Below are positions 19,123 through 64,000 of a stretch of 64,000 bases of DNA, piece after piece. The translations under genes and the position numbers were made by a program. The DNA is from an uncultured Candidatus Saccharibacteria bacterium. GTDB lineage: Bacteria; Patescibacteriota; Minisyncoccia; UBA6257; UBA9933. The number at the start of each line of letters is the position of its first letter. The stretch's first letter is position 1. The stretch spans positions 65,801 through 129,800 of the forward strand of contig CAZXNT010000002.1 in assembly GCA_964642155.1 (NCBI GenBank), read 5' to 3'. Under the pieces are notes generated by a model. That model had not been told where the DNA came from. It ran no database searches and was given only the letters and a program-made list of their open reading frames with translations.

Positions 19123-19544
19123 TGAAAGATTATTAATAAAATGACAATGCTAAAAAACATATCAAGCGGATGAAGACTTCGGCAAGTTTTTTTATTGTCT
19201 TCACCCCGCTTTCAAGCGGGATTTTTATTTTTTATGTCAACTAAAGCTTTGTTTTTTGAAAAAGTTTCAGTTGGTGTGAAAATCAGAATTTGTTGGTTGG
19301 TTAGTTTTTTAAAAATTGAATACAGGAAAATAAAAATAAAAGTAAAGTTATCCAACTTCTTGAATTCTGAATTTCAAGAAGATTTATTTAAGGGCGTATG
19401 GTGGATGCCTTGACATCAAACAGCGATGAAGGACGTGGCGTGGCTGCGATAAGCTTCGGGGAGGCGCTTAGCAACCTTTGATCCGAAGATTTCCGAATGG
19501 GGAAACCCTGCGCTGAAAACCAGCGTAAGCGCTGCTTTTCAGCG

Positions 19545-19628
19545 AATTTAGGATTACAAATTAAGAATTTAGAATTACGGAAAAATTATTTTTTAATTCT
19601 GCATTCTGCATTCTGAATTTTGAATTCG
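19545..19628. repeat. family A inverted-repeat element inserted in a 23S rRNA 5'-domain helix tip
   Basis: AGCGAATTTAGGATTACAAATTAAGAATTTAGAATTACGG..AATTCTGCATTCTGCATTCTGAATTTTGAATTCGCT. Perfect terminal inverted repeat AGCGAATT/AATTCGCT. Confidence 0.75.
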
Positions 19629-20029
19629 CTGCAAAGCAGCGTGGCTTACCCGCTGAAGTGAAACATCTCATTAAGCGGAGGAACAGAGAATAATAATTTA
19701 TTCCCCTAGTAGCGGCGAGTGAAAAGGGAGGAGCCTAAACTTATAAAAAAATTCGCAAGAAAATTTTTATAAGGGTTGCAAGACAGAGACGCTCTTTTGC
19801 TTTTCGCGAAGTCCTGAACTTATTGAAGGATTTCGCGATTTGTGAAAGGTGGAAGAGTTACAAATTCTTTGGTTAGCCAAATTAGCTGGAAAGCTGAACC
19901 ATAGCGGGTGATAGTCCCGTAGGCGAAAACCGAAGAACTCTTTAGTTTTTGATCTTAAGTACCTCGATGACAGGATGCTTCGAGGGAATCATCCGGCACT
20001 ATCCGGAAAGGCTAAATATGTTTGATGAT

Positions 20030-20066
<37 letters not shown>

Positions 20067-22004
20067 CAGGCCGGCGAGGCCGATGAAATAGTATCTGAAA
20101 CCATATGTCTACAAGGAACGGAAGTCCGCAAGGACGACCGTGTGCCTATTGAAGAATGAGCCAACGAGTTTATTTTACTCCTTTGTCTAAGCTTTACGGA
20201 GCGGAGGCATAGGGAAACCGAGTCTTAATAGGGCTACTATTAAGGGGTGGAATAAGACCCGAAGCCAAGCGAGCTTGCCCTGATCAGGATGAAGCGGAGG
20301 TAAAACTCTGTGGAGGTCCGAACCGGTTGGTTGTGCAAAACCTTCGGATGAATTAGGGTAAGAAGTGAAAAGCTAATCGAGCTTGGTAATAGCTGGTTCT
20401 CTCCGAAATAGCTTTAGGGCTAGCGTCGGGCAAAAATATATCTGGGGTAGAGCTACTGGTTGAGAAGTAATGGGGGAAACCTCGGCTTCTTAGTCAAACT
20501 CCGAATACGGATATAAATCGGTCCGGCAGTTAGAATGTGGGGGCTAAGCTCCATATTCAAAAGGGAAACAGCCCAAATCGTCGTCTAAGGTCCCTAAATA
20601 TTTGCTAAGTGTTAAAGGTAGTGATTCGCCATAGACAGATAGGAGGTTGGCTTAGAAGTAGCCATCCTTTAAAGAGTGTGTAACAACTCACTATTCGACG
20701 GCGAATTGCGCCGAAAATTTACCGGGGCTAAGCAAGTTACCGAAGACACGAATTTCGCCGCAAGGCGAAGTGGTAGGAGAGCATTTCAAACGCACTGAAG
20801 CCGGACTCGCGAGAGCCGGTGGAGTGTTTGGAAGAGAGAATGTTGGCATGAGTAACCACAATCCCAATGAGAATTTGGGACTCCGAAAATCCAAGGGTTC
20901 CTCCGTAACGGAAATCGACGGAGGGTTAGGCGATCCTAAGGCAATGGCGAAAGCCGCAGCTGATGGGAAGCTGGTTAATATTCCAGCCCCTCTGTATAGT
21001 TCGATGTGGTGACGAAGAAAATAAGATTGAGCGTCTTAATGGTTTGACGTTGTTTGTTTCCAGAATTTTTCGACAGGCAAATCCGTCGGAATGCTTTTAA
21101 CGGCAAAATTCGGAAACCGAAAAAATTCGCTTACGGGCGGAAATTCAATCGAAGAGTCTTCCGAGAAAAACCTCTAAGAATAGCTATATAGAGATCGTAC
21201 CGTAAACCGACACAGGTGGGTGAGGCGAGAAGCCTAAGGAGAACGAGTGAGTCTTCGTTAAGGAACTCGGCAAAAAAGCGGCCGTAAGTTCGCAATAAGG
21301 CCTGCCCGCAGCAATGCGGGCCGCAGCGAAAGTATCTCTAGCGACTGTTTAACAAAAACACAGCTCCCTGCGAACTCGCAAGAGGATGTATAGGGGGTGA
21401 TGCCTGACCGATGCGAGAAGGTCAAGCTTGGCGGTGCTTTGCAGCAATGTGGAGTGCTGACTGGGTTAAGCCCTCGTCAATGTCAGCGATAACTATAATC
21501 GTTCTAAGGTAGCGCAATTCCTTTTCGGGTAAGTTCCGAAGCGCACGAATGGTATAACGACTGGAGAACTGTCTCAACGAAGAGCTCGGTGAAAATGCGA
21601 TTCCCGTGAAGACGCGGGATACCTGCAACGGGACGAAAAGACCCCGGGAGCTTTACTGCAGCTTGATATTGTTTTTAGAATTTTGATGCGTAGCGTAGTG
21701 GGGAGCCTTTGAAGCTTCGCTTTCGGGCGGAGTGGAGGCGTCAATGAAACACCCATCTTTAAAATTTTAAAGACTAACCTTGGCGGCAAAAACGTCAGGG
21801 AACAGTGTCTGGCGGGCAGTTTAAATGGGGCGTTTTCCTCCTAAAAAGTAACGGAGGAGTTTATTAAGGTCGGCTAGGAGCGGATGGAAATCGCTCTCGT
21901 CGTGTAAACGCACAAGCCGGCTTAACTGCAAGGCCTACAAGCCGCGCAGACGCGAAAGCGGAAGTTAGTGACCCGACAATTCTTTATAGAAAGGTTGGAG
22001 ACAC

Positions 22005-22038
<34 letters not shown>

Positions 22039-22233
22039 GTTGCCCGAGAGTCCTTATCGACGGCAACGCTCGGCACCTCGATGTCGGCTCATCACAGCGC
22101 GGGGGTGAAGAAGCTCCCAAGCGTTTGGCTGTTCGCCAATTAAAGTGATACGTGAGCTGGGTTCAAACCGTCGTGAGACAGGTTGGTCTCTATCTGTTGC
22201 AGGCGTTGATATTTGAGGGAAGTTGACCCTAGT

Positions 22234-22957
22234 AAGAAATTGCTACTTCGCGGAGTAATCCGCGATGACAATTTGGCTAATAACGGTGAAGTCTTAATAT
22301 TTGATTATCATAATCGGTCTGAATGATAATTTACTTGAGGACCAAGAAATGTTAAGATAATACCGTGGGAAGTCAATCTAAAATAAATTTAGCATATATC
22401 GCTGGTTTTCTTGATGGCGATGGAAGTCTGATGCTCCAAATTAAAAAACGGAAAGATAGCAATAAATCGTATAGATTTATGGCTACTATTTGTTTTTATC
22501 AGGATTCGCGGCATGAAAAACCGCTTTTCTGGATACAAAAAGTTTTAAACATCGGATATTTATCTAAAAGAAAAGATGGCATAAGTGAATTAAGAATCAA
22601 TGGTTTTAAACAAATCGAAAAAATTCTTAATAATTTATCACCATTTATTAAATTTAAGAAAATTCAAGCGAAAATTCTTTTAAAGTCTGTAATTTTTCTT
22701 CAAAAATCTGATTTAAAAGAAAAAGATTTGAGGATATTAGTAAATAATATTATTCAAATTCAATCTGAGAATTATGTTTCTAAGAAAAAGCGGACAAAAG
22801 AAGAATTGTTTAAAATTTTAGGTTTGACCCCGTAACGACTGAGTCTAAAAAAGACAAGATAGGAATTTTAAAATTTCTATAATATGCCGATATCCAATCC
22901 CGCCATGGCGGGAGGATAAAGATATAGTCTACACACATAGTGATATGTGATTATGTG
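22234..22957 (+). mobile_element. intron in 23S rRNA (group I-type inferred) carrying a LAGLIDADG homing endonuclease ORF
   Basis: Exon junction rebuilds the conserved CCUAGU|ACGAGAGGACC. 5' exon ends in U and the insert ends in G. The HE ORF is internal. Confidence 0.7.
22365..22835 (+). CDS. LAGLIDADG homing endonuclease (single-motif, homodimer type)
   Basis: LAYIAGFLDGDGSL motif near the N-terminus. 156 aa, I-CreI-like size. Confidence 0.85.
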   Translation: MGSQSKINLAYIAGFLDGDGSLMLQIKKRKDSNKSYRFMATICFYQDSRHEKPLFWIQKVLNIGYLSKRKDGISELRINGFKQIEKILNNLSPFIKFKKIQAKILLKSVIFLQKSDLKEKDLRILVNNIIQIQSENYVSKKKRTKEELFKILGLTP

Positions 22958-23233: not shown

Positions 23234-23350
23234 TGCTGGTGTTTTACTTATACATGAACCACTCCTTCCCATTCCGAACAGGACAGTGAAAGTGTGTAAG
23301 ACTAATGATACTTTTCGCCTCGGCGGATGGGAAAGTAGGCTATGCCAGCA
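23234..23350 (+). rRNA. rrf: 5S ribosomal RNA
   Basis: TGCTGGTG..CCAGCA terminal helix. Internal CCCATTCCGAACAGGACAGTGAAAG matches the 5S loop B/C consensus. Confidence 0.8.
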
Positions 23351-23447
23351 TATAAAAGTTTTGGCGTTTTTTTATTTGTAAGGTATAATATTTATAATTA
23401 ATTAACGAGTTATTATTCATTGGAAATTGTAAATTGTAAATTAAAAC

Positions 23448-51369: not shown

Positions 51370-51444
51370 TCCGCAGTAGCTCAGTGGTAGAGCGGTCGCC
51401 TGTTAAGCGATTGGTCGTAGGTTCGAATCCTACCTGCGGAGCCA
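51370..51444 (+). tRNA. tRNA-Asn (anticodon GTT), CCA encoded
   Basis: TCCGCAG-TA-GCTCAGTGGTAGAGC.. Anticodon loop CTGTTAA. T-arm GTAGGTTCGAATCCTAC. Ends CTGCGGAGCCA. Confidence 0.9.
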
Positions 51445-52425: not shown

Positions 52426-52485
52426 TTTGTATTCTTGATGTCAATACTTATTTGAACATCGTCCCATGTTCGGAGCACATATAAA

Positions 52486-52515
52486 AAACAGGTCAAATAT
52501 AAACCTGTTTTTTTA
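52486..52515 (+). terminator. rho-independent terminator (AACAGGT-CAAATATA-AACCTGTT plus T-run), copy 1
   Basis: Sequence is near-identical (one mismatch) to 57458-57487. Confidence 0.6.
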
Positions 52516-52758: not shown

Positions 52759-55173
52759 ATGAAATCTGTAAAAATATTTTCATTTTTTCTAATAGGTCTT
52801 GTTATGGCCGGTGCTTTATCATCGGCAAGGCCGGCGTTTGCGCAAGAAGTGGCTCAGGATGTCAAAGTCTATGCCGAGAACATGAAAAACGACGCTGGGG
52901 CAATTGGCGCCGTTACGGAACTGTTCGGCAAGGACGCGCCAATAGTGAAGAAATTTCAGTTGGGCGTTAAGCTTGGGGAATTCATCACGCGCGTAAGTCA
53001 GGGCGACGTACTCGATGCGGCAATAGATTTAGCAAAATATGAATTAGAACAAGTGATAGATACTATAAAAGGGAAATTATTCGGTCCTTTCGCCGCCGCG
53101 GCTGATTTAGGAAAATGGCTTGGTGAAAAAGGTAGAAATATGCACTTCGTCTCGGTTTTTAATGCTGGATATGAGATTTACAAAAGAGAGAACGGTCAGG
53201 GCGAATTTTACATTTCTGAAATAGCCGGATGGTGGGATATAGGAGGAAAAAAGTTTGAGAAAGAAAAAGGCGATTTGCCGGCATGGAAAAAGGTATTTAA
53301 AAATCTTTATGAAGCGGAAAAGTTGGCGGCCGGAATTAAGCAAGAGGATATTCAGAAAGTTGAACAGGTAAAAAAAGAGGTTAAAAAAGAAGTATTTATC
53401 ACTTTTTTCAAAACCAAATACATAGGCATGCCCGCTGACATTGCTGAAGAGCTTGCCGAGCTCATAGTCAATAAAGCCAGTAATGTGGAGATTGAGAAAT
53501 TTATTGACAAACACAAAAACACTCTTAATAATCTTTCTATTGCGAAACCCGCGAATCAGGAAGGAGCGGCTTCGGGAAGTGGCATTTGCGAAACGATAAA
53601 AGACAAAGACTCTCAAGACTTTCAAGATTTCAGAAAAAATTGCGAAGAAATTTTGGCGGAAATCGTGGATATGAAAAACCAAGTTTTTTCCAATAAGATA
53701 ACTTACTATGATTATTCTAGGCGGACTAATGGCCGTCAAATTGCTTACCTCGATGGTATTGGCAAGGAAAACTTTACCAAATTTAAAAAAAGCCAAGAAA
53801 ATATTATTGCTTCTGCCTACGAATTTCAGTTTGGGCAAGAAATACGAGCGATAAATGATTCCTTGGCTACAAACAAAGACAGATTTCAAGGCCTAAAGAG
53901 CGATTATAAAAATCTTCCAAAGCAAGGAGATCATTGGAACGCGCCATCCTATAAGGTTTCCGTAAATAAGAGTTTTACGCGTGTTTTCAACAATGTTTAT
54001 AATATGGTTTTCAATTACGGGAGTTTTAGTTATGAAGATTTTAAGAACGGAGACGCTCAAAAAAGTTATCAGCCATATTTTGACAATGAAACTAAGGCGA
54101 ATATTGCGGATGACGCAAGAACAAGATATTTAAAAGCGCATCTCAACAGATTAAATGGCTTGGTTCGCGATTTTACTATTTTACAAAACAGGATAAACTC
54201 TCTTATCTCGTCAGCTGAATCAGCCAATGGAGTATTCAGCTATGGGCAAATAAGAATAGATGATTTAAAGAAAATGGTTTCGGAAATTGAGGAATTGAGA
54301 GAAGACATCCAATCCGGAGAAAGGCCTTGGTGGATGGTCTGGAGACAGCGCGACCCGTGGAGTATTAATTCTGTGTTAGAAGCTATTAAGGGAATGGAAA
54401 GTTATAAAAAAACACGCGGGGAGGAAAATGAACAACTAAAAAAAGATTATGCTTCGGCTTTTAAAATTTATGAAAAGGAAGAGAAACTGCTGGAATTGGA
54501 AAAACAGAAACAAGCTGAAGAAGAAAAAAAGGCCGCCGCGGAAGAAAAAGCGCAGGCTCTGAAAAAACAAAAGGCAGAAGAGGATGCCGTTAAACAGGAG
54601 CGAGCGGGATGGGAGGCAGAAAAACAAGCGGCCGCCGAAAAAGCTGACCCGAAGACAAAAAGCACTGACGCATTTAATGTTCCATTCGGAGAAAGTCAAA
54701 AAACAACGCTGAGTAAATCAGTACCAACGATCGAAACAACTAAACCCGCTACAATACAAACAAAACCAGTTCCCCCTCCAGCACAACCCTCTACACAATT
54801 CTCCGCGCAAAAAAAACCAACTCGCCCAACTGGAAAGAGCTTTATACCACATTATTACAAAAGAATAGCGGGTTTTTCTTTTATCAATCAAAGTGAAGCC
54901 GATATGATGGTATCCGACTTTTCCTGGAATGATGATGGAATTAATGCACTTGGTGCCGGAATATTAAAACTAGGGGCTAAATCTATAGATGATGTCTTTT
55001 CTGTTCCAACCTCGGGATATGAGGACGGTCCCTATCAGCCGGAGGTAGGTCACGTTTATGTCATTAAAACTAAAGGCGATAAATATGGCGTTATTGAAAT
55101 AACACTTATTGAAACAGATTATCTATATTTTTATTGGAGATATCAGAATTCAGACGGCTCTTCTTCTTTTTAG
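52759..55173 (+). CDS. large secreted protein (804 aa) with signal peptide, central coiled coil and Pro/Thr/Gln-rich linker, hypothetical
   Basis: Signal peptide MKSVKIFSFFLIGLVMAGALSSARPAFAQE. Lys/Glu/Ala-rich coiled coil at about 590-660. C-terminal beta-rich domain. A TTGACA..TATAAT promoter lies at 52691-52720. Confidence 0.55.
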   Translation: MKSVKIFSFFLIGLVMAGALSSARPAFAQEVAQDVKVYAENMKNDAGAIGAVTELFGKDAPIVKKFQLGVKLGEFITRVSQGDVLDAAIDLAKYELEQVIDTIKGKLFGPFAAAADLGKWLGEKGRNMHFVSVFNAGYEIYKRENGQGEFYISEIAGWWDIGGKKFEKEKGDLPAWKKVFKNLYEAEKLAAGIKQEDIQKVEQVKKEVKKEVFITFFKTKYIGMPADIAEELAELIVNKASNVEIEKFIDKHKNTLNNLSIAKPANQEGAASGSGICETIKDKDSQDFQDFRKNCEEILAEIVDMKNQVFSNKITYYDYSRRTNGRQIAYLDGIGKENFTKFKKSQENIIASAYEFQFGQEIRAINDSLATNKDRFQGLKSDYKNLPKQGDHWNAPSYKVSVNKSFTRVFNNVYNMVFNYGSFSYEDFKNGDAQKSYQPYFDNETKANIADDARTRYLKAHLNRLNGLVRDFTILQNRINSLISSAESANGVFSYGQIRIDDLKKMVSEIEELREDIQSGERPWWMVWRQRDPWSINSVLEAIKGMESYKKTRGEENEQLKKDYASAFKIYEKEEKLLELEKQKQAEEEKKAAAEEKAQALKKQKAEEDAVKQERAGWEAEKQAAAEKADPKTKSTDAFNVPFGESQKTTLSKSVPTIETTKPATIQTKPVPPPAQPSTQFSAQKKPTRPTGKSFIPHYYKRIAGFSFINQSEADMMVSDFSWNDDGINALGAGILKLGAKSIDDVFSVPTSGYEDGPYQPEVGHVYVIKTKGDKYGVIEITLIETDYLYFYWRYQNSDGSSSF

Positions 55174-55851: not shown

Positions 55852-57438
55852 ATGTCACTCCTTACAAAAACAGATTTTATTTTATATCGAGAGTGCCCAA
55901 ACAACGTTTGGGTAAAAAGACATAAGCCCGCGGAATATGCAAAGTTTGAGATTTCGGAGTTTGAACAATCTCTTGCGGTAATGGGTAACGAAGTAGAAAA
56001 GTTGGCGCGAGGAATGTTCCCCGCAGGCTTTCTTATTGAACGACGCAGTGAAAGAGCGCAAGAGCTAACGAAGAAACTTATTACAGAGCGCGCGCCAGTC
56101 ATTTTTCAGGCGGTTTTTGCAACTGATAAATATCTGACTGCCGCTGACGTTCTAAAATGGAATGAATCGGCGCAAAAATATGACATATACGAAATAAAAA
56201 TGTCTTCAACAGAGGAAGACGATGATGAAGAGGAAGAAGGAAAACCTAAAAGAGTCAACAAAAAAAGAGAACTTCAATATGAGTATGACATCGCTTTTCA
56301 AACCAATGTCATAGAAGGCTGTGGAATACCGCTGAACAAAAAGTATTTAGTCCGTCTCAATAGAAAATACGTTAGGATGGGAGAGCTTAATTTCATACCA
56401 GGAGAACTTTTTATTGTAGAAGATAAGACGGAAGTAATAGACCGTCTAAGTCCCACTGTTGCAATAGAAATGTCACAAGCACAAACTTATCTTTCCACTA
56501 CAAAAATACCAGTAGCGCCGTGCCCTTGTTACTACAAAGGGCGCAGTTCCCACTGCACCGCATTTACCTACATAAACCCACACGTGCCTGCATACAGCGT
56601 TCACGACTTGAATAGAATTGGAAACAGTAAAAAGTATCTCAAGGAGCTTTTAGATGAAGGTATTTTGGAGATTAGCGATGTACCGATAGACGACAGGCTC
56701 AAACCAAAGCCGCCGAAAGCTGGCGCAAAACCCGGTAAGCCGAGGAAGCTAAATCAAATTCTAGTCCATAAGTCCCAAGAGCCTCTGGTGAATCTTGAGA
56801 CTCTCAAAGCTGAACTTGATTCACTTACTTTTCCTCTTTATTTTCTTGACTACGAGACATATCCGACAGCAATTCCTCCTTACAACGGGTATTATCCATA
56901 TCAGCAAATTGTCTTTCAGTATTCACTGCACGTCTTAAAAGATAAAAATTCGGAACCAATTCATTTTGAGCGTTTAATACTAGATGGAGAACCATCTGAA
57001 CGTATAGCGGAAAGTTTGCGAAAGAATATTGGCGACACGGGAACAGTTATCTCTTGGTTCAAGACTTTTGAAAACTCCCGAAATAAGGAATTAGCGGGGT
57101 TTCTACCAATCCATAAGAATTTTTTTCTCGGTATTATTGGTCGCACTTATGACTTAATGGACATTGTAGATGGTCAACATTATGTGCACCCTGGATTTAA
57201 GGGAAGAGCATCAATCAAAAAAGTCTTACCAGTCTTGGCTCCACATCTTTCTTATAAAACGCTTGGTGTCCAAAGTGGTACAGATGCTATTGAGGCTTAT
57301 CGAAAAATTACCGCAGGAGAGATAAGTGGAGAGGCGCTAAAAGATAAGGAACGCGAGATGCTTAAATACTGCAAACTTGATACTTATGCGATGTACGTAT
57401 TATGGAGATTTTTTAGCAATGAAATAAAAAAAATATAA
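55852..57438 (+). CDS. DUF2779-type protein: N-terminal PD-(D/E)xK (RecB/Cas4-like) nuclease fused to a C-terminal DEDD/RNase-H-like exonuclease domain
   Basis: D..EIK nuclease motif (AADVL..YDIYEIKMS). FLDYETY and YCKLDTYAM are DnaQ-like Exo I/Exo III motifs. Acidic linker DDDEEEEG. Confidence 0.6.
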   Translation: MSLLTKTDFILYRECPNNVWVKRHKPAEYAKFEISEFEQSLAVMGNEVEKLARGMFPAGFLIERRSERAQELTKKLITERAPVIFQAVFATDKYLTAADVLKWNESAQKYDIYEIKMSSTEEDDDEEEEGKPKRVNKKRELQYEYDIAFQTNVIEGCGIPLNKKYLVRLNRKYVRMGELNFIPGELFIVEDKTEVIDRLSPTVAIEMSQAQTYLSTTKIPVAPCPCYYKGRSSHCTAFTYINPHVPAYSVHDLNRIGNSKKYLKELLDEGILEISDVPIDDRLKPKPPKAGAKPGKPRKLNQILVHKSQEPLVNLETLKAELDSLTFPLYFLDYETYPTAIPPYNGYYPYQQIVFQYSLHVLKDKNSEPIHFERLILDGEPSERIAESLRKNIGDTGTVISWFKTFENSRNKELAGFLPIHKNFFLGIIGRTYDLMDIVDGQHYVHPGFKGRASIKKVLPVLAPHLSYKTLGVQSGTDAIEAYRKITAGEISGEALKDKEREMLKYCKLDTYAMYVLWRFFSNEIKKI

Positions 57439-57457
57439 TTATGATGTATTTAATAAA

Positions 57458-57487
57458 AAACAGGTCAAATATAGACCTGTTTTTTTA
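57458..57487 (+). terminator. rho-independent terminator (AACAGGT-CAAATATA-GACCTGTT plus T-run), copy 2
   Basis: See 52486-52515. Confidence 0.6.
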
Positions 57488-57534
57488 AAAGAGCAAATGG
57501 TAAAATATGATTGATAATTTAATGAAATAGCGAT

Positions 57535-58518
57535 ATGAAAAAAGATAATTTTCAAAAAGGCGAAATAGTGATTTACCAAGCGTCATCAGGCACCATTGAA
57601 TTTCGCGGCGATTGGGAAAAAGAAACGATTTGGGCAACACAGGCAGAAATAGCTCGGGCTTTTGATGTTACGCCACAAAACATTACGATTCATCTGCACA
57701 ATATATTTAAAGACGACGAACTTAATAAGGGGTCAACTTGTAAAGAATCCTTACAAGTTCAGAAAGAAGGCAAAAGGGAAATTGGGCGAAAGATGAAGCT
57801 GTATAATCTTGATGTCATTATTGCCATTGGTTATCGTATTAATTCCGTTGTTGGTACAAAATTTCGTCAATGGGCCACAAAGACCTTACGTGAGCATATT
57901 ACTAAGGGCTATACCATAAATCGCAAACGCATTGCGCAAAATTATAACGCGTTTATGAAAGCAGTCGCCGATATTCAGACGCTCCTGCCGAAACATATTA
58001 CTCTTGATCCAAAGACAGTTCTTGAACTCATTAAAGAATTCGCCAGCACTTGGGTTTCGCTTGACGCTTACGATAAAGAAACGCTTGAGGTTGTCGGAAC
58101 AACTAAGAAAGCGGTCAAGTTAATTGGGAAAGAACTGACCGGCGCGATAGAGAACCTTCGAGCCGAACTGATTAAAAAAAGCGAGGCAACGGAATTGTTC
58201 GCCCAAGAAAGACAATTTGGAAATATCGAAGATATTGCGGGGAATGTTATGCAATCATTCGGAGGCAAACCGCTTTATCCGAGCGTGGAAGAAAAAGCTG
58301 CGCATCTTTTGTATTTTATGGTGAAGAATCATCCCTTCACTGACGGCAATAAACGCTCCGGCGCTTTTGCCTTTGTTTGGTTTCTACGTAAATATCGCGC
58401 TAAAGAAAACCGCAATATTAATCCAGCGAGTTTAACCGCCCTTACACTTCTTATCGCCGAAAGTAATCCCCAAAAAAAAGAACAAATGGTAGCGTTGGTA
58501 ACGCAATTACTTAAATAA
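57535..58518 (+). CDS. RhuM-family protein with a C-terminal Doc/Fic-type domain
   Basis: N-terminal RhuM-like region (IEFRGDWEKETIWATQAEIARAF). C-terminal HPFTDGNKRSGAF, a Doc-type HxFx(D)GNKR motif. Confidence 0.7.
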   Translation: MKKDNFQKGEIVIYQASSGTIEFRGDWEKETIWATQAEIARAFDVTPQNITIHLHNIFKDDELNKGSTCKESLQVQKEGKREIGRKMKLYNLDVIIAIGYRINSVVGTKFRQWATKTLREHITKGYTINRKRIAQNYNAFMKAVADIQTLLPKHITLDPKTVLELIKEFASTWVSLDAYDKETLEVVGTTKKAVKLIGKELTGAIENLRAELIKKSEATELFAQERQFGNIEDIAGNVMQSFGGKPLYPSVEEKAAHLLYFMVKNHPFTDGNKRSGAFAFVWFLRKYRAKENRNINPASLTALTLLIAESNPQKKEQMVALVTQLLK

Positions 58519-58591
58519 TAATTACACTAACCCAATCCCGCGAAGCAAAAATCATCTATCAAAAACTGTTGAAAATTGATAAAATAAAACT

Positions 58592-59428
58592 ATGAACAAT
58601 AAAAAACAAATTTCAATTTTTGAAGGCAAACAAATCCGTCGTCACTGGGACGAGGAAAAAGAATTATGGCATTTTGCCGTTATGGATGTGGTGGAAATCT
58701 TGGCGCAAACCGATAGACCAAGAAAATATTGGAATGATTTAAAAACCAAGTTAAAAGCGGAGGGCAGCGAGGTGTCCGAAAAAATCGGACAACTGAAAAT
58801 GCGAGCTTCTGACGGCAAATTTTACCTTACCGATACGGCAGACACGGAAACGATGTTTCGTATTATTCAATCCATTCCTTCGCCTAAAGCCGAACCGTTT
58901 AAGCTCTGGCTGGCTCGGGTGGGTTATGAGAGAGTGGAGGAAACCGAAGATCCGGAAAAAGCCATCCAAAGAGCGTTGGCGACTTATCTCAAAAAAGGAT
59001 ATTCTAAAAATTGGGTTGACCTGCGACTAAAAAGCATTGAAATCAGAAAAGATTTAACCAATGAATGGGACGAGCGAGGCGTAAAAACAAATAATGAATT
59101 CGCCATTTTGACTGACGATATTTCTTTCGCTTGGGCGGGATTAAAAACCAAGGACTACAAAAAGCATAAAGATTTGAAAAAAGAAAATCTGCGGGACAAT
59201 ATGAATAACCTTGAATTAGTTTTGAATATGCTGGCGGAAACGGCAACCACGGAAATTTCCAAAAAACGGGAACCAAAAACTTTTCCGGAGAATAGAAAAG
59301 TAGCGCGCGAAGGCGGAGGCATTGCCGGCAACGCCAGAAAACAAATTGAGGCAAAAATAGGAAAACCGGTTATCAGTAAATTGAGTTTTAAAAAAATACA
59401 GGAGCAGAAAAAGCTAAACGAAAAATAA
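58592..59428 (+). CDS. DinD-like (DNA-damage-inducible protein D) with an N-terminal Bro-N domain
   Basis: ISIFEGKQIRRHWDEEKELWHFAVMDVVEIL is a Bro-N signature. Length and C-terminus are DinD-like. Confidence 0.7.
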   Translation: MNNKKQISIFEGKQIRRHWDEEKELWHFAVMDVVEILAQTDRPRKYWNDLKTKLKAEGSEVSEKIGQLKMRASDGKFYLTDTADTETMFRIIQSIPSPKAEPFKLWLARVGYERVEETEDPEKAIQRALATYLKKGYSKNWVDLRLKSIEIRKDLTNEWDERGVKTNNEFAILTDDISFAWAGLKTKDYKKHKDLKKENLRDNMNNLELVLNMLAETATTEISKKREPKTFPENRKVAREGGGIAGNARKQIEAKIGKPVISKLSFKKIQEQKKLNEK

Positions 59429-59432
59429 ATTT

Positions 59433-60116
59433 ATGACCAAATCATTTACTATTCACGATTTACCTAATGAAGAACGCCCGCGCGAACGATTAGTTAAATT
59501 TGGAGAACAAGCGCTCTCGGCCCAAGAATTATTACAACTTATTTTGGGGAGGGGAATTGCCGGTGAATCAGTGGTAATTACGGCGCAAAAATTATTATCG
59601 CAATTTGGCAGTCTTCAAAAATTATCCGAAGCAAGTATTGAGGAATTATCCTCAATTAAAGGAATTGGGCTGGCAAAAGCCACTCAAATAAAAGCCGCGT
59701 TTGAAATCGGCCGTCGGCTTTCCACACAGACCGCGCCATATAAAAGCAAAGAACTTACCGAACCCAAAAAGGTGTATCAATTAATAAAAAGCAAGCTCAA
59801 AGATTATCATAAAGAGCATTTTTATGTTATTGCTCTTAACAGCAGAAATCACTCCATCGCGGAAATTTCGGTCGGCTCTCTTAATGCCAGTATTGTTCAT
59901 CCGCGCGAAGTATTCGCGGAAGCCATCAAAAACAAAGCCGCCTCAGTTATATTCGTTCATAACCATCCATCAGGCGACTCCGAACCATCAGAAGACGATT
60001 TAATAATTACTAAAAAATTAGTTGAGTCCGGCAAGATTTTGGGGATTGAAATAGTTGACCATATTATTGTCGTTAAAGACAGTTTTTTTAGCTTTAAAGA
60101 TAAAGGATTAATATAA
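59433..60116 (+). CDS. radC: RadC-like JAB/MPN domain protein
   Basis: N-terminal HhH (ELSSIKGIGLAKATQI). JAMM motif HNHPSGDSEPSEDD. Confidence 0.8.
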   Translation: MTKSFTIHDLPNEERPRERLVKFGEQALSAQELLQLILGRGIAGESVVITAQKLLSQFGSLQKLSEASIEELSSIKGIGLAKATQIKAAFEIGRRLSTQTAPYKSKELTEPKKVYQLIKSKLKDYHKEHFYVIALNSRNHSIAEISVGSLNASIVHPREVFAEAIKNKAASVIFVHNHPSGDSEPSEDDLIITKKLVESGKILGIEIVDHIIVVKDSFFSFKDKGLI

Positions 60117-60188
60117 AATTATTTTATTTAAGAAGTATAATTAGAAATTTGACAATTATACATTAAGGCTATAAAGTATAATTACAGT

Positions 60189-61325
60189 ATGGAAAAGTCA
60201 ATATTTACAACAAATGCCGCGGGGAAAGTAATAAAAACCGAAAAGGGTTATTTTGCTTTTGCGCCTAATCCACTCCCGCCATTGTTGGAATTTAATAATG
60301 ATTTAGTTAACGCGCTTTCGCAGGCGGATATTGCGTTGGGGAAACTTGCGGGAGCCGCAAAACGTTTGCCTAACCCGCATCTTTTAATTCAGCCCTATTT
60401 AAAAAAAGAAGCGGTTTTAAGTTCAAAAATAGAAGGAACGCAGGCATCATTGTCTGATTTATTTGAGGCGGAAATTGGCGCCGTCGAAAAAACCGATGAC
60501 ATTAAAGAAGTAAATCAATATGTGAAAGCAATGGAATACGGATTGAAACGTATTAAAGATTTTCCTTTGAGCCTTCGTTTTGTTCGCGAACTCCATAAAA
60601 TTTTGATGGAGGGGGTTCGAGGCAAACACGCTGCGCCGGGAGAATTTAGAGTAAGTCAAAATTGGATTGGCAATCCCGGCTGTACATTGGAAGAAGCAAC
60701 TTTCGTCCCTCCCTCTGTCGCCACAATGAATGAATCTCTTAATGACTGGGAAAAATATTTGCATCAAGACAAAAAACTTCCGACTCTTATAGATTCTGCC
60801 TTAATTCATTATCAATTTGAGGCTATTCATCCGTTTCTTGATGGCAATGGAAGAATAGGGAGATTGTTTATAACTCTTCTTTTGGTGAATAAGGAAATTT
60901 TACCACTGCCTCTTTTATATTTAAGCGCCTTTTTTGAAAAATACAGAAGCGAGTATTACGAATACCTTATGCAGGTAAGCACAAAGGGATTGTGGAATGA
61001 TTGGTTGATTTTTTTCTTGCGCGGCGTGCGCGAACAAGCGACAGAAGCGTTGGCAAATGCTGATAAAATTTTGGCCCTACAAGAAGAATACGACAGAATT
61101 ATAAAAGAAAATCATTTGAGCGCCACAGTGAGCAGGGTGCTTGATTTATTGTTTCAAAATCCGTATATTACGATTCCTCGGGCCGCTTCCTTATTAAAAA
61201 CTACTTTTGTCACTGCCAAACGGTCGGTGCTCCACCTCGAAAAACTCGGTATTGTAAAAGAAATAAGCGGTAAAGAAAAAGGAAGAGTTTTTCTTGCCTC
61301 AAAATTATTAGATATTTTAAACTAA
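60189..61325 (+). CDS. Fic family protein with a C-terminal winged-helix domain
   Basis: Canonical Fic motif HPFLDGNGRIGRL. Inhibitory-helix-like SKIEGTQASL is present upstream. Confidence 0.8.
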   Translation: MEKSIFTTNAAGKVIKTEKGYFAFAPNPLPPLLEFNNDLVNALSQADIALGKLAGAAKRLPNPHLLIQPYLKKEAVLSSKIEGTQASLSDLFEAEIGAVEKTDDIKEVNQYVKAMEYGLKRIKDFPLSLRFVRELHKILMEGVRGKHAAPGEFRVSQNWIGNPGCTLEEATFVPPSVATMNESLNDWEKYLHQDKKLPTLIDSALIHYQFEAIHPFLDGNGRIGRLFITLLLVNKEILPLPLLYLSAFFEKYRSEYYEYLMQVSTKGLWNDWLIFFLRGVREQATEALANADKILALQEEYDRIIKENHLSATVSRVLDLLFQNPYITIPRAASLLKTTFVTAKRSVLHLEKLGIVKEISGKEKGRVFLASKLLDILN

Positions 61326-61366
61326 AAGATTTTAAGTTTTAAAAGAAAAATGTTAATATAAAAGAT

Positions 61367-63250
61367 ATGGTTCAATATAAAAAACTCAAAGAAGAAATTA
61401 TTACAGAACCAGAAAAAGGCAAATCAGGATTTGTTAAAGATGCTATTTCTAATGAGTGGATTAAAAAAACGCCCGAAGAAGAAGTGCGTCAAATTTATCT
61501 TCAAAAATTAATTAAAGAATATAAATATCCCAAAAGCCATATTAAAACTGAAGTAAAAATTCAATCCGGTCAAACTGAAACAAAAAAACGAGCCGATATT
61601 GTTGTTTTTAGGAATGATAAAAATTTTAGGCCCGAAGAAAACGCTTATATTATCGTTGAACTTAAAAAGCGAGACAGAAAAGACGGCGAAGAACAATTAA
61701 AAAGTTATATAAATAGCACTACCGCCGAATTTGCCGTTTGGTTTAATGGACAAGACATAGGTCATTTCCAGTACTCAAAAGATCCGAGAAAACATTTGGA
61801 AATTCCGGATATTCCCAAGTATGGCGAATCATTAAAAGATATCGGACTTTATAAAAAGAAGGATTTAGTGTTGGCAAGCGAATTGAAAACGGTTTTCGAA
61901 ACAATTCATAATCATATTTACGCCAATGAGGGCTATTTGAAAGATAAAGTTTTTAACGAGGTTTTAAAATTGATTTTTATTAAAATGGTTGATGAAAAAT
62001 CCGCAAGCGCTGATTGCGATTTTCGCATAACCGTTAAAGAAAAAGAAGAAATAGAAAACGACGACGGAACCAATTTCCGCAAAAGAATTGAAGATTTGTT
62101 TGAAAAAGTTAAAAAAGATTTTAGCGATATTTTTGATAGCACGGATAAATTAATTTTAAGAACTCAAACCTTGGCTTTTGCCGTTGGCCAACTTCAAAAA
62201 TATTCATTGATAAAAACAGAAGCCGATATAAAAGGTGTTGCTTTTCAAACTTTTGTTCATGCTCACTCAAGAGGCGAAAGAGGAGAATTTTTTACTCCTT
62301 ATCCAATTTTAAAAATGGCGGTAGAAATGTTATCGCCAAAAGATAATGAATCAATTTTAGACCCTGCCTGTGGCTCTGGCGGTTTTTTGGTTCAAACATT
62401 GAATTATATAAGGTGTATGTTTGAAAAAAATCGTCCCGATTTATCGGATTTGGAAATTATTAGGAATTTAACGTCTTACGCCATAAATTATATTCGTGGA
62501 ATTGATTTTAATCCCGATTTGGCGCGCGTGGCAAAAATGTATATGGTTTTATATGATGACGGCCACACCGGCATATTTGCGCATAATTCTTTAAATAGTT
62601 TCCAAAAAATTTACGATATTTCTAATCATAAAATTAAAGAAGAATCATTTGATATTATAATAACCAATCCGCCATTTGGCACAAAAGGAAAAGTGACGGA
62701 TAAAAATATTTTAGATGATTTTGAAATGGGCCATAAATGGAAAAAAGACGAAGATAAATGGAAAAAATTATCAAAAATTGCGGCTGAAGACGGAAAAGGT
62801 GGCCAAGTGCCGGACATTCTTTTTATTAAACGTTGCTTGCAGTTTTTAAAAGATGGCGGAAGAATGGCAATTGTTTTACCGGATGGAGATTTAACAAATT
62901 CTTCGCTTGGCTATGTTCGGCAATGGCTCAAAGATAATGCCAGAATTTTAGCGGTTGTTTCTTTGCCGTCGGAAACTTTTATTCCTTATGGTGCTGGTGT
63001 TAAAGCATCGGTTTTGTTTTTACAAAAATTACCGAAAAAAGAGCTGGAAGCGTTAAAGAAAAAAGACTACCCGATTTTTATGGGAATTATTGAAAAAATC
63101 GGATATGACATTCGCGGCCGAGCGATTTATAAACGTAACGAAAAAGGCGAGATTATCAAAAAAGACGATAAACCAACAATTGATGAAGATGTAAGTTTAA
63201 TAATAGAAGAATTTAAAAAATTTAAAGAGAAATATAAGTTGGAGTTTTAG
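61367..63250 (+). CDS. fused PD-(D/E)xK nuclease (HsdR_N-like) plus gamma-class N6-adenine DNA methyltransferase; BcgI-A-like (Type IIB/IIG) restriction-modification subunit candidate
   Basis: N-terminal ADIVVF..IIVELKK (D..ExK). Motif I LDPACGSGGFL and motif IV IITNPPFG. 627 aa. Stop is 3 nt before the next ATG. Confidence 0.75.
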   Translation: MVQYKKLKEEIITEPEKGKSGFVKDAISNEWIKKTPEEEVRQIYLQKLIKEYKYPKSHIKTEVKIQSGQTETKKRADIVVFRNDKNFRPEENAYIIVELKKRDRKDGEEQLKSYINSTTAEFAVWFNGQDIGHFQYSKDPRKHLEIPDIPKYGESLKDIGLYKKKDLVLASELKTVFETIHNHIYANEGYLKDKVFNEVLKLIFIKMVDEKSASADCDFRITVKEKEEIENDDGTNFRKRIEDLFEKVKKDFSDIFDSTDKLILRTQTLAFAVGQLQKYSLIKTEADIKGVAFQTFVHAHSRGERGEFFTPYPILKMAVEMLSPKDNESILDPACGSGGFLVQTLNYIRCMFEKNRPDLSDLEIIRNLTSYAINYIRGIDFNPDLARVAKMYMVLYDDGHTGIFAHNSLNSFQKIYDISNHKIKEESFDIIITNPPFGTKGKVTDKNILDDFEMGHKWKKDEDKWKKLSKIAAEDGKGGQVPDILFIKRCLQFLKDGGRMAIVLPDGDLTNSSLGYVRQWLKDNARILAVVSLPSETFIPYGAGVKASVLFLQKLPKKELEALKKKDYPIFMGIIEKIGYDIRGRAIYKRNEKGEIIKKDDKPTIDEDVSLIIEEFKKFKEKYKLEF

Positions 63251-63253
63251 AAT

Positions 63254-64000
63254 ATGAATTTTCCAAAAATTTTAGAGACCGCACGGAATAAGCCAAGGCT
63301 TATAAAAAAAGACACAAGACAGTGGACAAGCGGCCGTGTTAGCTTTGCCGTGATTGGCATACCTAAACATCCTGAAACAAATTATATTCTTTGGGAAAAA
63401 GATTTTTTCGGTCGCTCTAAACAACAACCACAAAGATTTATTCTCCATTCTCATGATTGGCAAAATCTTAAAAGATTGATTGATGGAGATTTAATAAAGG
63501 AAACAAAATGGACGCAACCACAGATTCTAACAGAGGTGATGTTGCAAAAAATAATATTAGAAAATCCAGATTTTATTGAAACAATTTTAAAAGTACCAAA
63601 TATTACTAAATTGTCTCAGGTAAGTTTAGAAGCTCTTGATAGATTAGCAATTAGGATATTCGAGATTAAAAGAGAAAACATAGATTTAATTTTAAAAAGA
63701 CTTGCAGAAAGTAAAAGTCAGGAATTAATAACTTTTGCATCTTTATTAAGAGATTTAAAACTAAATCAAGTTTCTATGTTGAGTAGTTTGGTTTATCAAA
63801 AACTTAAAATTATCGATTTACTTGAAAATCTTACTTGTAATAAAGAAACAAATGAGAGTAAAGTTCATGAATTATTTGAAAGCAACATCTGGTTATCTGG
63901 GAAAAATTTTGAGATAGTACAAAGCGATAAATCATTAAGTAAGTATCTTGATGAAAATATTTCTAAAGAAGCGGGGATGAAACTAAGGCCAGATTTAATT
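63254..64000 (+). CDS. hypothetical protein, 3'-truncated by the window end; co-transcribed partner of the nuclease-methyltransferase (possible specificity or accessory subunit)
   Basis: Open frame from the ATG at 63254 to the window end (at least 249 aa). Not in the ORF track because no stop is reached. No recognised motif. Confidence 0.4.
   Translation, partial: MNFPKILETARNKPRLIKKDTRQWTSGRVSFAVIGIPKHPETNYILWEKDFFGRSKQQPQRFILHSHDWQNLKRLIDGDLIKETKWTQPQILTEVMLQKIILENPDFIETILKVPNITKLSQVSLEALDRLAIRIFEIKRENIDLILKRLAESKSQELITFASLLRDLKLNQVSMLSSLVYQKLKIIDLLENLTCNKETNESKVHELFESNIWLSGKNFEIVQSDKSLSKYLDENISKEAGMKLRPDLI

Follow-up and report, generated by a model that had tools for sequence, protein, structure and literature searches.

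Whether a tight run of genes acts as one machine or is a collection of independent parts is the question raised by the end of a 64,000-nucleotide (nt) stretch of DNA from an uncultured Candidatus Saccharibacteria bacterium (contig CAZXNT010000002.1, positions 65,801 to 129,800; hereafter the window), where seven consecutive genes with short spacers between them lie on the forward strand from 55852 to the window end. The original prediction, made from the sequence alone, saw in them a possible multi-component anti-phage or abortive-infection module around a BcgI-like restriction-modification (RM) protein, and proposed the last, truncated open reading frame (ORF), here called X, as the S-like partner of that protein. 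The window was scanned with Pfam, PADLOC, NCBIfam and PHROGs, and structures were compared by profile searches of the PDB and by Foldseek. The outcome is more conventional: the cluster is probably an ordinary mosaic defence island in a Patescibacteria-like genome, with a two-gene Type IIB-like RM system at its core and independent single-gene defence genes around it. It is read as a mosaic because X is mostly found alone, the cargo between the two RM genes varies among relatives and only RadC recurs near the RM gene. Domain content, catalytic residues, gene order and the variability of the cassettes, all directly observed, carry this reading.

All seven ORFs were recovered exactly where they had been predicted, and Pfam agrees with each of the domains named at the time (DUF2779, RhuM and Doc, Bro-N, RadC, Fic, nuclease-methyltransferase). 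The defence character of the cluster was likewise borne out, by full-length PADLOC matches for four genes (SoFic, PDC-S23, PDC-S13 and MTase_II). The argument turns on three genes, the last of which lies beyond the window on a 7.3-kb Logan contig (L001) retrieved by exact-sequence look-up of the 627-amino-acid (aa) protein; the first 4,938 nt of this contig equal window positions 59063-64000 with 0 mismatches.

61367 to 63250, forward strand: RM subunit M, 627 aa, with PD-ExK endonuclease, helical connector and gamma-class N6-adenine methyltransferase

63254 to 64000, forward strand: ORF X, 349 aa in full (L001 4192-5241), of which the window holds residues 1-249 (249 codons)

L001 5248-6582, 6 nt past X: S gene, 444 aa, with two Methylase_S stretches (8.6e-26) and a PADLOC Specificity_I match (1.9e-60)

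M had been assigned the BcgI-A-type (Type IIB) architecture, and this assignment stands. Pfam recognises HSDR_N_2 (1.9e-25, residues 36-150) and N6_Mtase (3e-36, residues 300-557), the NPPF motif is found at residues 434-437, and the PADLOC model MTase_II matches over the full length (2.1e-120), with matches to MTase_I models as well. A profile built from 26 homologues (A2) has RM.BsaXI (8w0p) as its best match in the PDB, with an E-value of 1.6e-51, and reaches Type I HsdM proteins at about 1e-20 (best HsdM 2.6e-22); an HsdM_N domain is absent from M. BsaXI functions as an (RM)2S heterotrimer that has no motor subunit, and in it E73, D90, E105 and K107 are essential by mutagenesis and conserved in all Type IIB enzymes (PMC11997821). 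In a pairwise alignment, E62, D77, E98 and K100 of M fall onto these four residues; D77, E98, K100 and the NPPF motif are invariant among the 26 homologues, and E62 is conserved in at least 90% of them. The best NCBIfam model for M is MAD2, with 498 bits against a cutoff of 720.

Since the S gene follows directly after X, the methyltransferase is not an orphan; its S gene lies one gene downstream of M. Here, the best NCBIfam model is MAD5 (196 bits, cutoff 400). A 119-aa orphan ORF comes after the S gene, no HsdR-like gene was found within the 0.7 kb that follow S on L001 or in the relatives with long flanks (L024, L025, L103 and L106), and the L001 extension yielded no tRNA. When the S genes of L001, L103, L104 and L019 are compared, 75 nt at the 5' end (L001 5247-5321) and the 3' half (L001 5773-6579) are conserved, whereas the relatives share no nucleotide similarity over the first target recognition domain (TRD; about L001 5322-5772). 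Because the ends are conserved while the first TRD is not, the pattern indicates TRD swapping, and the recognition half-sites would accordingly be predicted to differ between relatives.

The arrangement of M and S was followed through 80 metagenomic loci with M relatives, the genes of which were called and labelled in this analysis. Sixty-eight loci keep the nuclease region: S is immediately downstream of M in 25, both are fused in one chain of 760-890 aa in 23 (P0208, with PF01420, is an example), one to three other, unrelated genes separate them in 6, S is not seen in 5, and the contig end cuts the remaining 9. No conserved HsdR-like gene stands beside the close M relatives in these 68 loci, and a conjugative plasmid of Klebsiella carries an “N-6 DNA methylase” and a “restriction endonuclease subunit S”, again with no HsdR. 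The BcgI-A architecture is thus supported because BsaXI is the best relative, the catalytic residues are kept, S is adjacent or fused, a conserved HsdR is lacking, the MAD2 and MAD5 scores stay under their cutoffs and mad6-8 are not seen.

The position between M and S, occupied by X in the window, serves as a slot for varying cargo. In L103, whose M is 95% identical as a protein and 90% identical at the nucleotide level, the slot holds an unrelated 243-aa gene instead of X; nucleotide similarity breaks off with the stop codon of M and picks up again at the start codon of S. The slot contains a YhcG/DUF1016 gene (PDC-S02) in L027, two unknown genes in L099, and CARF/PDDEXK-like, GIY-YIG and pPIWI-nuclease-like genes in L104. 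The cargo regions of L104 (4569-4643) and L105 (4619-4693) contain, in addition, a duplicated piece of the S reading frame that covers residues 1-25 (76% identity), which is probably a recombination footprint of cassette insertion. Defence genes embedded in RM, BREX and DISARM loci have been described under the term “guilt-by-embedding” (Payne et al. 2024, bioRxiv 10.1101/2024.01.29.577857), and the variable genes in this slot are an instance of that phenomenon.

X itself begins 3 nt past the stop codon of M, and a GGAG precedes its ATG by 10 nt; of the translational coupling that had been proposed, the tight packing stands, but the two genes do not overlap. The truncated form matches nothing in Pfam, PADLOC or NCBIfam, in line with the earlier statement that it has no recognisable family. 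This does not hold for the complete protein, which is Shedu-like and whose nuclease core (residues 245-346) falls past the end of the window. PADLOC and NCBIfam give no match to full-length X either. As an S subunit, X is ruled out: neither Methylase_S nor PADLOC Specificity models match at E<=1, there is no TRD signal, the protein bears nuclease motifs, most of its homologues occur without M or S, and the real S gene has been found. Mad3 and mad4 were also considered and ruled out, with no match in PADLOC or NCBIfam at E<=1.

The 119 homologues of X (43-100% identity) are all labelled hypothetical. The few with a named source come from Patescibacteria lineages, Dormibacteraceae and Omnitrophica, and some loci stem from metagenome-assembled genomes of Acidobacteriota. 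In an alignment of 34 sequences (A1), E201, R245-P246-D247, E263-x-K265 and G277-Q278 are invariant, which amounts to a complete PD-(D/E)xK set, and motifs I-IV are kept in 71 remote relatives, too. The corresponding motifs of Bacillus cereus Shedu are E204, D249, E264/K266 and Q295 (bioRxiv 10.1101/2023.08.10.552793). Weak SduA_C matches are seen in 28 of the 34 family members (best 1.5e-5) and weak HSDR_N_2 matches in 24. An AlphaFold2 (AF2) model with a predicted local distance difference test score (pLDDT) of 75 has a beta4-alpha N-terminal domain, a helical middle part and an alpha/beta C-terminal domain. Foldseek relates the first to the folds of PUR-alpha (PURA), Whirly (WHY2) and Sub1/PC4 (probability up to 1.0, E-value 0.02 or worse) and the last to restriction endonucleases and EndoMS. 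When the nuclease domain is modelled separately (pLDDT 86), B. cereus Shedu (8ti9_C) comes out on top of 350,542 chains with a probability of 0.98, the match as such being weak (E-value 2.2e-3, template modelling score (TM) 0.37, root-mean-square deviation 13 Å). With the full-length model, Shedu is outside the top 50 in the PDB, and a profile search of the PDB with X returned spurious matches only (E about 1.6).

Type 1A Shedu proteins consist of an sPC4/Whirly domain, a linker and a DUF4263 nuclease whose closest fold is EndoMS; the Shedu family as a whole combines an unchanging nuclease core with exchangeable sensor domains, and 602 of its 5,499 genes are situated within RM loci (bioRxiv 10.1101/2023.08.10.552793), with which the position of X is consistent. 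Searched with a profile, 1.84 billion representative proteins yielded 1,041 relatives, among which the linker and nuclease stand behind other N-terminal domains (GHKL ATPase, receiver, Roc-COR). Proteins of about 600 aa annotated as “ATP-binding protein” (P0249, P0253, P0259 and others) are fusions of a GHKL ATPase (HATPase_c_3) to the linker-nuclease module of X; such fusions are encoded by conjugative plasmids of Rhizobiales and Phaeobacter and are represented in the phage family phrog_6203. X is called Shedu-like rather than Shedu because no curated threshold is reached, PADLOC misses it and the profile comparison described below is not significant; it may be a sister family of Shedu and not a member. 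A canonical short Shedu (SduA_C; PADLOC SduA 5e-27) is encoded at 11543-12343 of L106, some 7.6 kb downstream of the RadC-M-S module of that locus; genuine Shedu genes, too, thus collect in the vicinity of the RM family of M.

The genomic distribution of X argues that it is mostly not a partner of the RM system. According to tblastn and the gene tables, 19 of the 21 other loci with X homologues contain neither M nor S within 10 kb, the identity of these solitary homologues to X being 46-68%. Neighbours of such solitary X genes are a serine recombinase with a helix-turn-helix gene, an integrase, or ribosomal protein S2 and other housekeeping genes. The remaining two are L018, with a partial match, and L019, in which the order M-X-S is repeated. 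Relative to the window, X of L019 is 83% identical, whereas M is only 56% identical, and nucleotide similarity spans the 3' third of M, X and the 5' end of S; this pattern suggests that recombination transferred the cassette along with its flanks.

The gene that does recur near M is RadC, which in the window is separated from M by a Fic gene. The remaining genes and the hairpin of the cluster are as follows.

59433 to 60116, forward strand: RadC, 227 aa, helix-hairpin-helix and JAB domain (Pfam UPF0758_N and RadC, 1.2e-41)

60189 to 61325, forward strand: SoFic-like Fic AMPylase, 378 aa (Pfam Fic_N and Fic, 6e-20)

58592 to 59428, forward strand: Bro-N/DinD-like protein, 278 aa, single-gene defence candidate (Pfam Bro-N, 5.7e-8)

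57535 to 58518, forward strand: RhuM-Doc fusion, 327 aa, single-gene defence candidate (Pfam Virulence_RhuM 2.7e-24, Fic 4e-12)

57453 to 57487, forward strand: terminator-like hairpin and U-run, 35 nt (RNA fold -16 kcal/mol, z = -4.3)

55852 to 57438, forward strand: DUF2779-domain protein, 528 aa (Pfam DUF2779 2.3e-34, residues 330-454)

RadC is a clear member of its family (NCBIfam RadC equivalog, 248 bits, over the cutoff of 180). Among the 52 related loci with enough upstream sequence, 10 have RadC no more than three genes upstream of M, and it is additionally near M in L019, L044 and L106; the loci concerned (L019, L023, L028, L030, L037, L042, L043, L044, L075, L104, L105 and L106) come from unrelated metagenomes. 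This frequency is far above chance for a single-copy gene, and the recurrent placement suggests a conserved RadC-RM-S module. GmrSD/HEC-05, Phd-ParE or DUF5655 genes stand between RadC and M in some relatives. The position is taken by SoFic in the window; in L019, L023 and L106, RadC abuts M directly. No published explanation for the linkage was found.

The other genes of the cluster behave differently. In at least 80 loci with M relatives, SoFic occurs near M only once (L099), and RhuM-Doc, Bro-N and DUF2779 never do; of the co-localisation that was to be checked in related genomes, only the RadC part was thus recovered. The SoFic-like protein matches the PADLOC SoFic model over its full length (1.4e-122, residues 20-377) and scores 195 bits with the NCBIfam SoFic equivalog, under the cutoff of 550. 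It bears the canonical Fic active-site motif HPFLDGNGRIGR and an N-terminal SSKIEG, which fits the inhibitory motif (S/T)xxxE(G/N) of the Fic classes. Millman et al. are said to have reported SoFic as a defence gene in 2022, the protein being a Shewanella Fic AMPylase. Phd-like antitoxins are absent from the cluster, as had been noted before, and the internal inhibitory helix of SoFic explains why a separate antitoxin gene is missing. RhuM-Doc matches PDC-S23 of PADLOC (2.6e-109, residues 8-327 of 327) and a Doc-like toxin PHROG (5e-14); it carries the Doc-type motif HPFTDGNKR, read as a kinase motif after P1 Doc. The third protein matches PDC-S13 (4e-127, residues 1-274 of 278) and phrog_15286 (3e-112). 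Of its original DinD/Bro-N label, Bro-N is confirmed by Pfam, but DinD has just a weak, partial NCBIfam match (29 bits, cutoff 242).

The DUF2779 gene had been described as a dual nuclease, a label that found no confirmation: the N-terminal half has a Cas4/RecB-like pattern when inspected by eye (C15, “DIYEIK”, CxC..C), a motif reading that no tool confirms. The protein has no match in PADLOC, PHROGs or PDB searches, Pfam recognises no N-terminal nuclease, and the score with the NCBIfam UU173 family is far under the cutoff. Since the hairpin with its U-run lies 3' of this gene, between it and RhuM-Doc, DUF2779 probably is a separate transcription unit; it is probably a bystander behind its own terminator and not part of a defence operon. 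A promoter consensus scan performed no better than on shuffled sequence, and promoter and terminator scans were uninformative on operon structure. A second palindromic copy of the 35-nt hairpin is found at 52481-52515, the two forming a 97% identical direct repeat 4,972 nt apart. Each copy sits after a gene end, that of a 240-aa membrane protein gene and that of DUF2779, and the pair may represent a terminator present twice or else a small repetitive extragenic palindromic (REP)-like element.

Against this background, the rival explanations can be weighed. X could be a dedicated third subunit in an M-X-S enzyme, for instance a further nuclease that finishes the double-strand cut or is switched on by RM-S. 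The gaps of 3 nt and 6 nt on one strand and the repetition of the order in L019 would fit; MADS systems have the extra essential genes mad3 and mad4 between their M and S genes (bioRxiv 10.1101/2023.03.30.534895), and for BsaXI, the way in which one nuclease domain manages to cut the two strands has been left open (PMC11997821). The idea is nonetheless improbable, given the many X loci lacking M and S, the 25 relatives with S directly adjacent to M and the 23 with a fusion, the unrelated gene in the slot of the 95%-identical L103, and the failure of mad3 and mad4 models to match X. A second rival, about equally improbable, assigns M and S to a Type I or MADS-type system, with a motor or effectors (HsdR or mad6-8) encoded further downstream. 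It can draw on MAD2 and MAD5 as the best NCBIfam models, on the MTase_I matches of M, on the short stretch covered after S in this genome, and on distant M relatives of about 34% identity (L090, L091, L100 and L102) that are followed by genes of 960-1370 aa. The scores are far under the MAD2 and MAD5 cutoffs, however, mad6-8, mandatory in the definition of MADS (bioRxiv 10.1101/2023.03.30.534895), are not seen in the close relatives with long flanks (L024, L025 and L106), and M lacks HsdM_N, has a fused nuclease with intact catalytic residues and finds its nearest solved relative in a Type IIB enzyme.

That all seven genes form one new multi-component abortive-infection module, as the original prediction had entertained, is highly improbable. 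The common strand, the short spacers and the four matches to PADLOC defence or candidate-defence models are compatible with it, but the composition is not conserved (only RadC recurs among the M-relative loci), the components match stand-alone single-gene models, a terminator-like hairpin follows DUF2779, and the close relatives L019, L103, L104 and L106 have different neighbours. A bolder interpretation would see the RM-S junction as a recombination-driven docking site for nuclease cargo, with X cooperating with the enzyme, RadC as a third partner and X founding a sister family of Shedu; as a whole, this is unlikely. If it were true, X might, for example, be triggered by DNA ends or short excised fragments released by the Type IIB enzyme, and current defence finders would be missing a sister family of some 1,000 representative clusters, the GHKL-ATPase fusions included.

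The preferred reading, a two-gene Type IIB-like RM core in a mosaic island, has evidence weighing against it as well. The N-terminal stretch of the M-BsaXI alignment is weak when taken alone (7 bits). Concerning X, the full-length protein scores 18.2 bits with Pfam SduA_C, under the cutoff of 27, the PADLOC SduA models give no match, the structural match to 8ti9 has the low quality given above, and an hhalign comparison of the X nuclease profile with one canonical Shedu (that of L106) was not significant, though the motifs aligned. Two loci, the window and L019, have the order M-X-S with X tightly packed between the other two genes, and downstream of S only about 0.7 kb are covered in this genome in which HsdR or mad6-8 could have been seen. 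How the enzyme assembles and cleaves, the Shedu-like regulation and the activity against phages are predictions, and the mechanism proposed for each part of the cluster rests on homology.

By analogy with the solved and described relatives, the mosaic island could work in the following manner: M and the separate two-TRD S protein most likely assemble as in BsaXI, as (RM)2S. S would read a bipartite site, the methyltransferase would mark the host DNA, and the N-terminal PD-ExK domains would cut unmodified DNA near the site, with no need for an HsdR motor. X may be an autonomous single-gene nuclease that was inserted exactly between the RM stop and the S start. Its Whirly/PUR-like N-terminal domain probably senses nucleic acid, and the PD-(D/E)xK nuclease would normally be auto-inhibited; X probably works on its own and provides a second layer of protection from invading DNA. 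SoFic, presumably a self-inhibited AMPylase, RhuM-Doc and the Bro-N/DinD-like protein may each be an independent single-gene defence element, or a candidate for one, and would have gathered at this one place. The RM core would have been entered at precise junctions, by X between RM and S and by SoFic between RadC and RM.

Further features were noted upstream in the window. A tRNA-Asn (51370-51444) was considered as an attachment site of the island and rejected, as no repeat of the tRNA 3' end was found and 51.3-64 kb holds no integrase. Between this tRNA and the defence genes, an 804-aa predicted secreted protein (52759-55173) is encoded, with a long coiled-coil-like stretch rich in Lys, Glu and Ala and a linker rich in Pro and Thr. 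The 23S rRNA gene (19378-22298) and the 5S rRNA gene (23234-23351) are about 935 nt apart, no 16S rRNA gene lies within the 64-kb window, and the rRNA genes appear to be unlinked. Unlinked rRNA genes are often reported for Patescibacteria.

What is new here is limited to a divergent Shedu-like family, a cargo slot in an RM family and the RadC linkage; the novelty is modest, and current concepts of bacterial immunity are left unchanged. The locus illustrates cleanly how cassettes are exchanged, with boundaries precise to the base pair, within a two-gene restriction system of the little-studied Patescibacteria. Two leads are cheap to follow: a Shedu-like nuclease family that escapes Pfam thresholds and PADLOC, and the strong genomic linkage of RadC and RM.

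Compared with known systems, the core is closest in design to BsaXI and BcgI. Like these enzymes, M fuses an N-terminal PD-ExK domain, a helical connector and a gamma N6-adenine methyltransferase in one chain, a separate S subunit with two TRDs is encoded at the same locus with no HsdR seen, and all four catalytic residues have counterparts in M, RM.BsaXI being the nearest solved relative. In contrast to BsaXI, M lacks the C-terminal “paddle” (627 aa versus 916 aa), strong similarity is confined to the connector and the methyltransferase, and, in contrast to BcgI, too, an unrelated nuclease gene interrupts the RM and S genes. MADS systems (mad1-8) share MAD2 and MAD5 as the best-scoring NCBIfam models and have M and S genes separated by others; they differ in that the scores here are under the cutoffs, mad6-8 are not found in relatives and X does not match mad3 or mad4. 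With Type 1A Shedu, X has in common the three-part architecture and motifs I-IV at nearly the same positions. Its best structural matches are EndoMS- and Shedu-like folds, and it is a single, mobile gene, sometimes in RM loci, whose wider superfamily swaps N-terminal domains. X differs from Shedu in staying under the Pfam SduA_C gathering score, in being missed by PADLOC SduA and in giving no significant profile match; its family is also absent from the PADLOC models altogether. The Fic protein of the cluster resembles SoFic in its full-length PADLOC match, in HPFLDGNGRIGR and in the N-terminal (S/T)xxxE(G/N) motif, and differs in scoring under the NCBIfam equivalog cutoff. The island as a whole resembles embedded-defence loci, with variable cargo between the RM subunits and with PDC-S23 and PDC-S13, joined in relatives by PDC-S02 and HEC-05, around the M-S module; the difference is that the host system here is a two-gene Type IIB-like system, not a classical Type I one.

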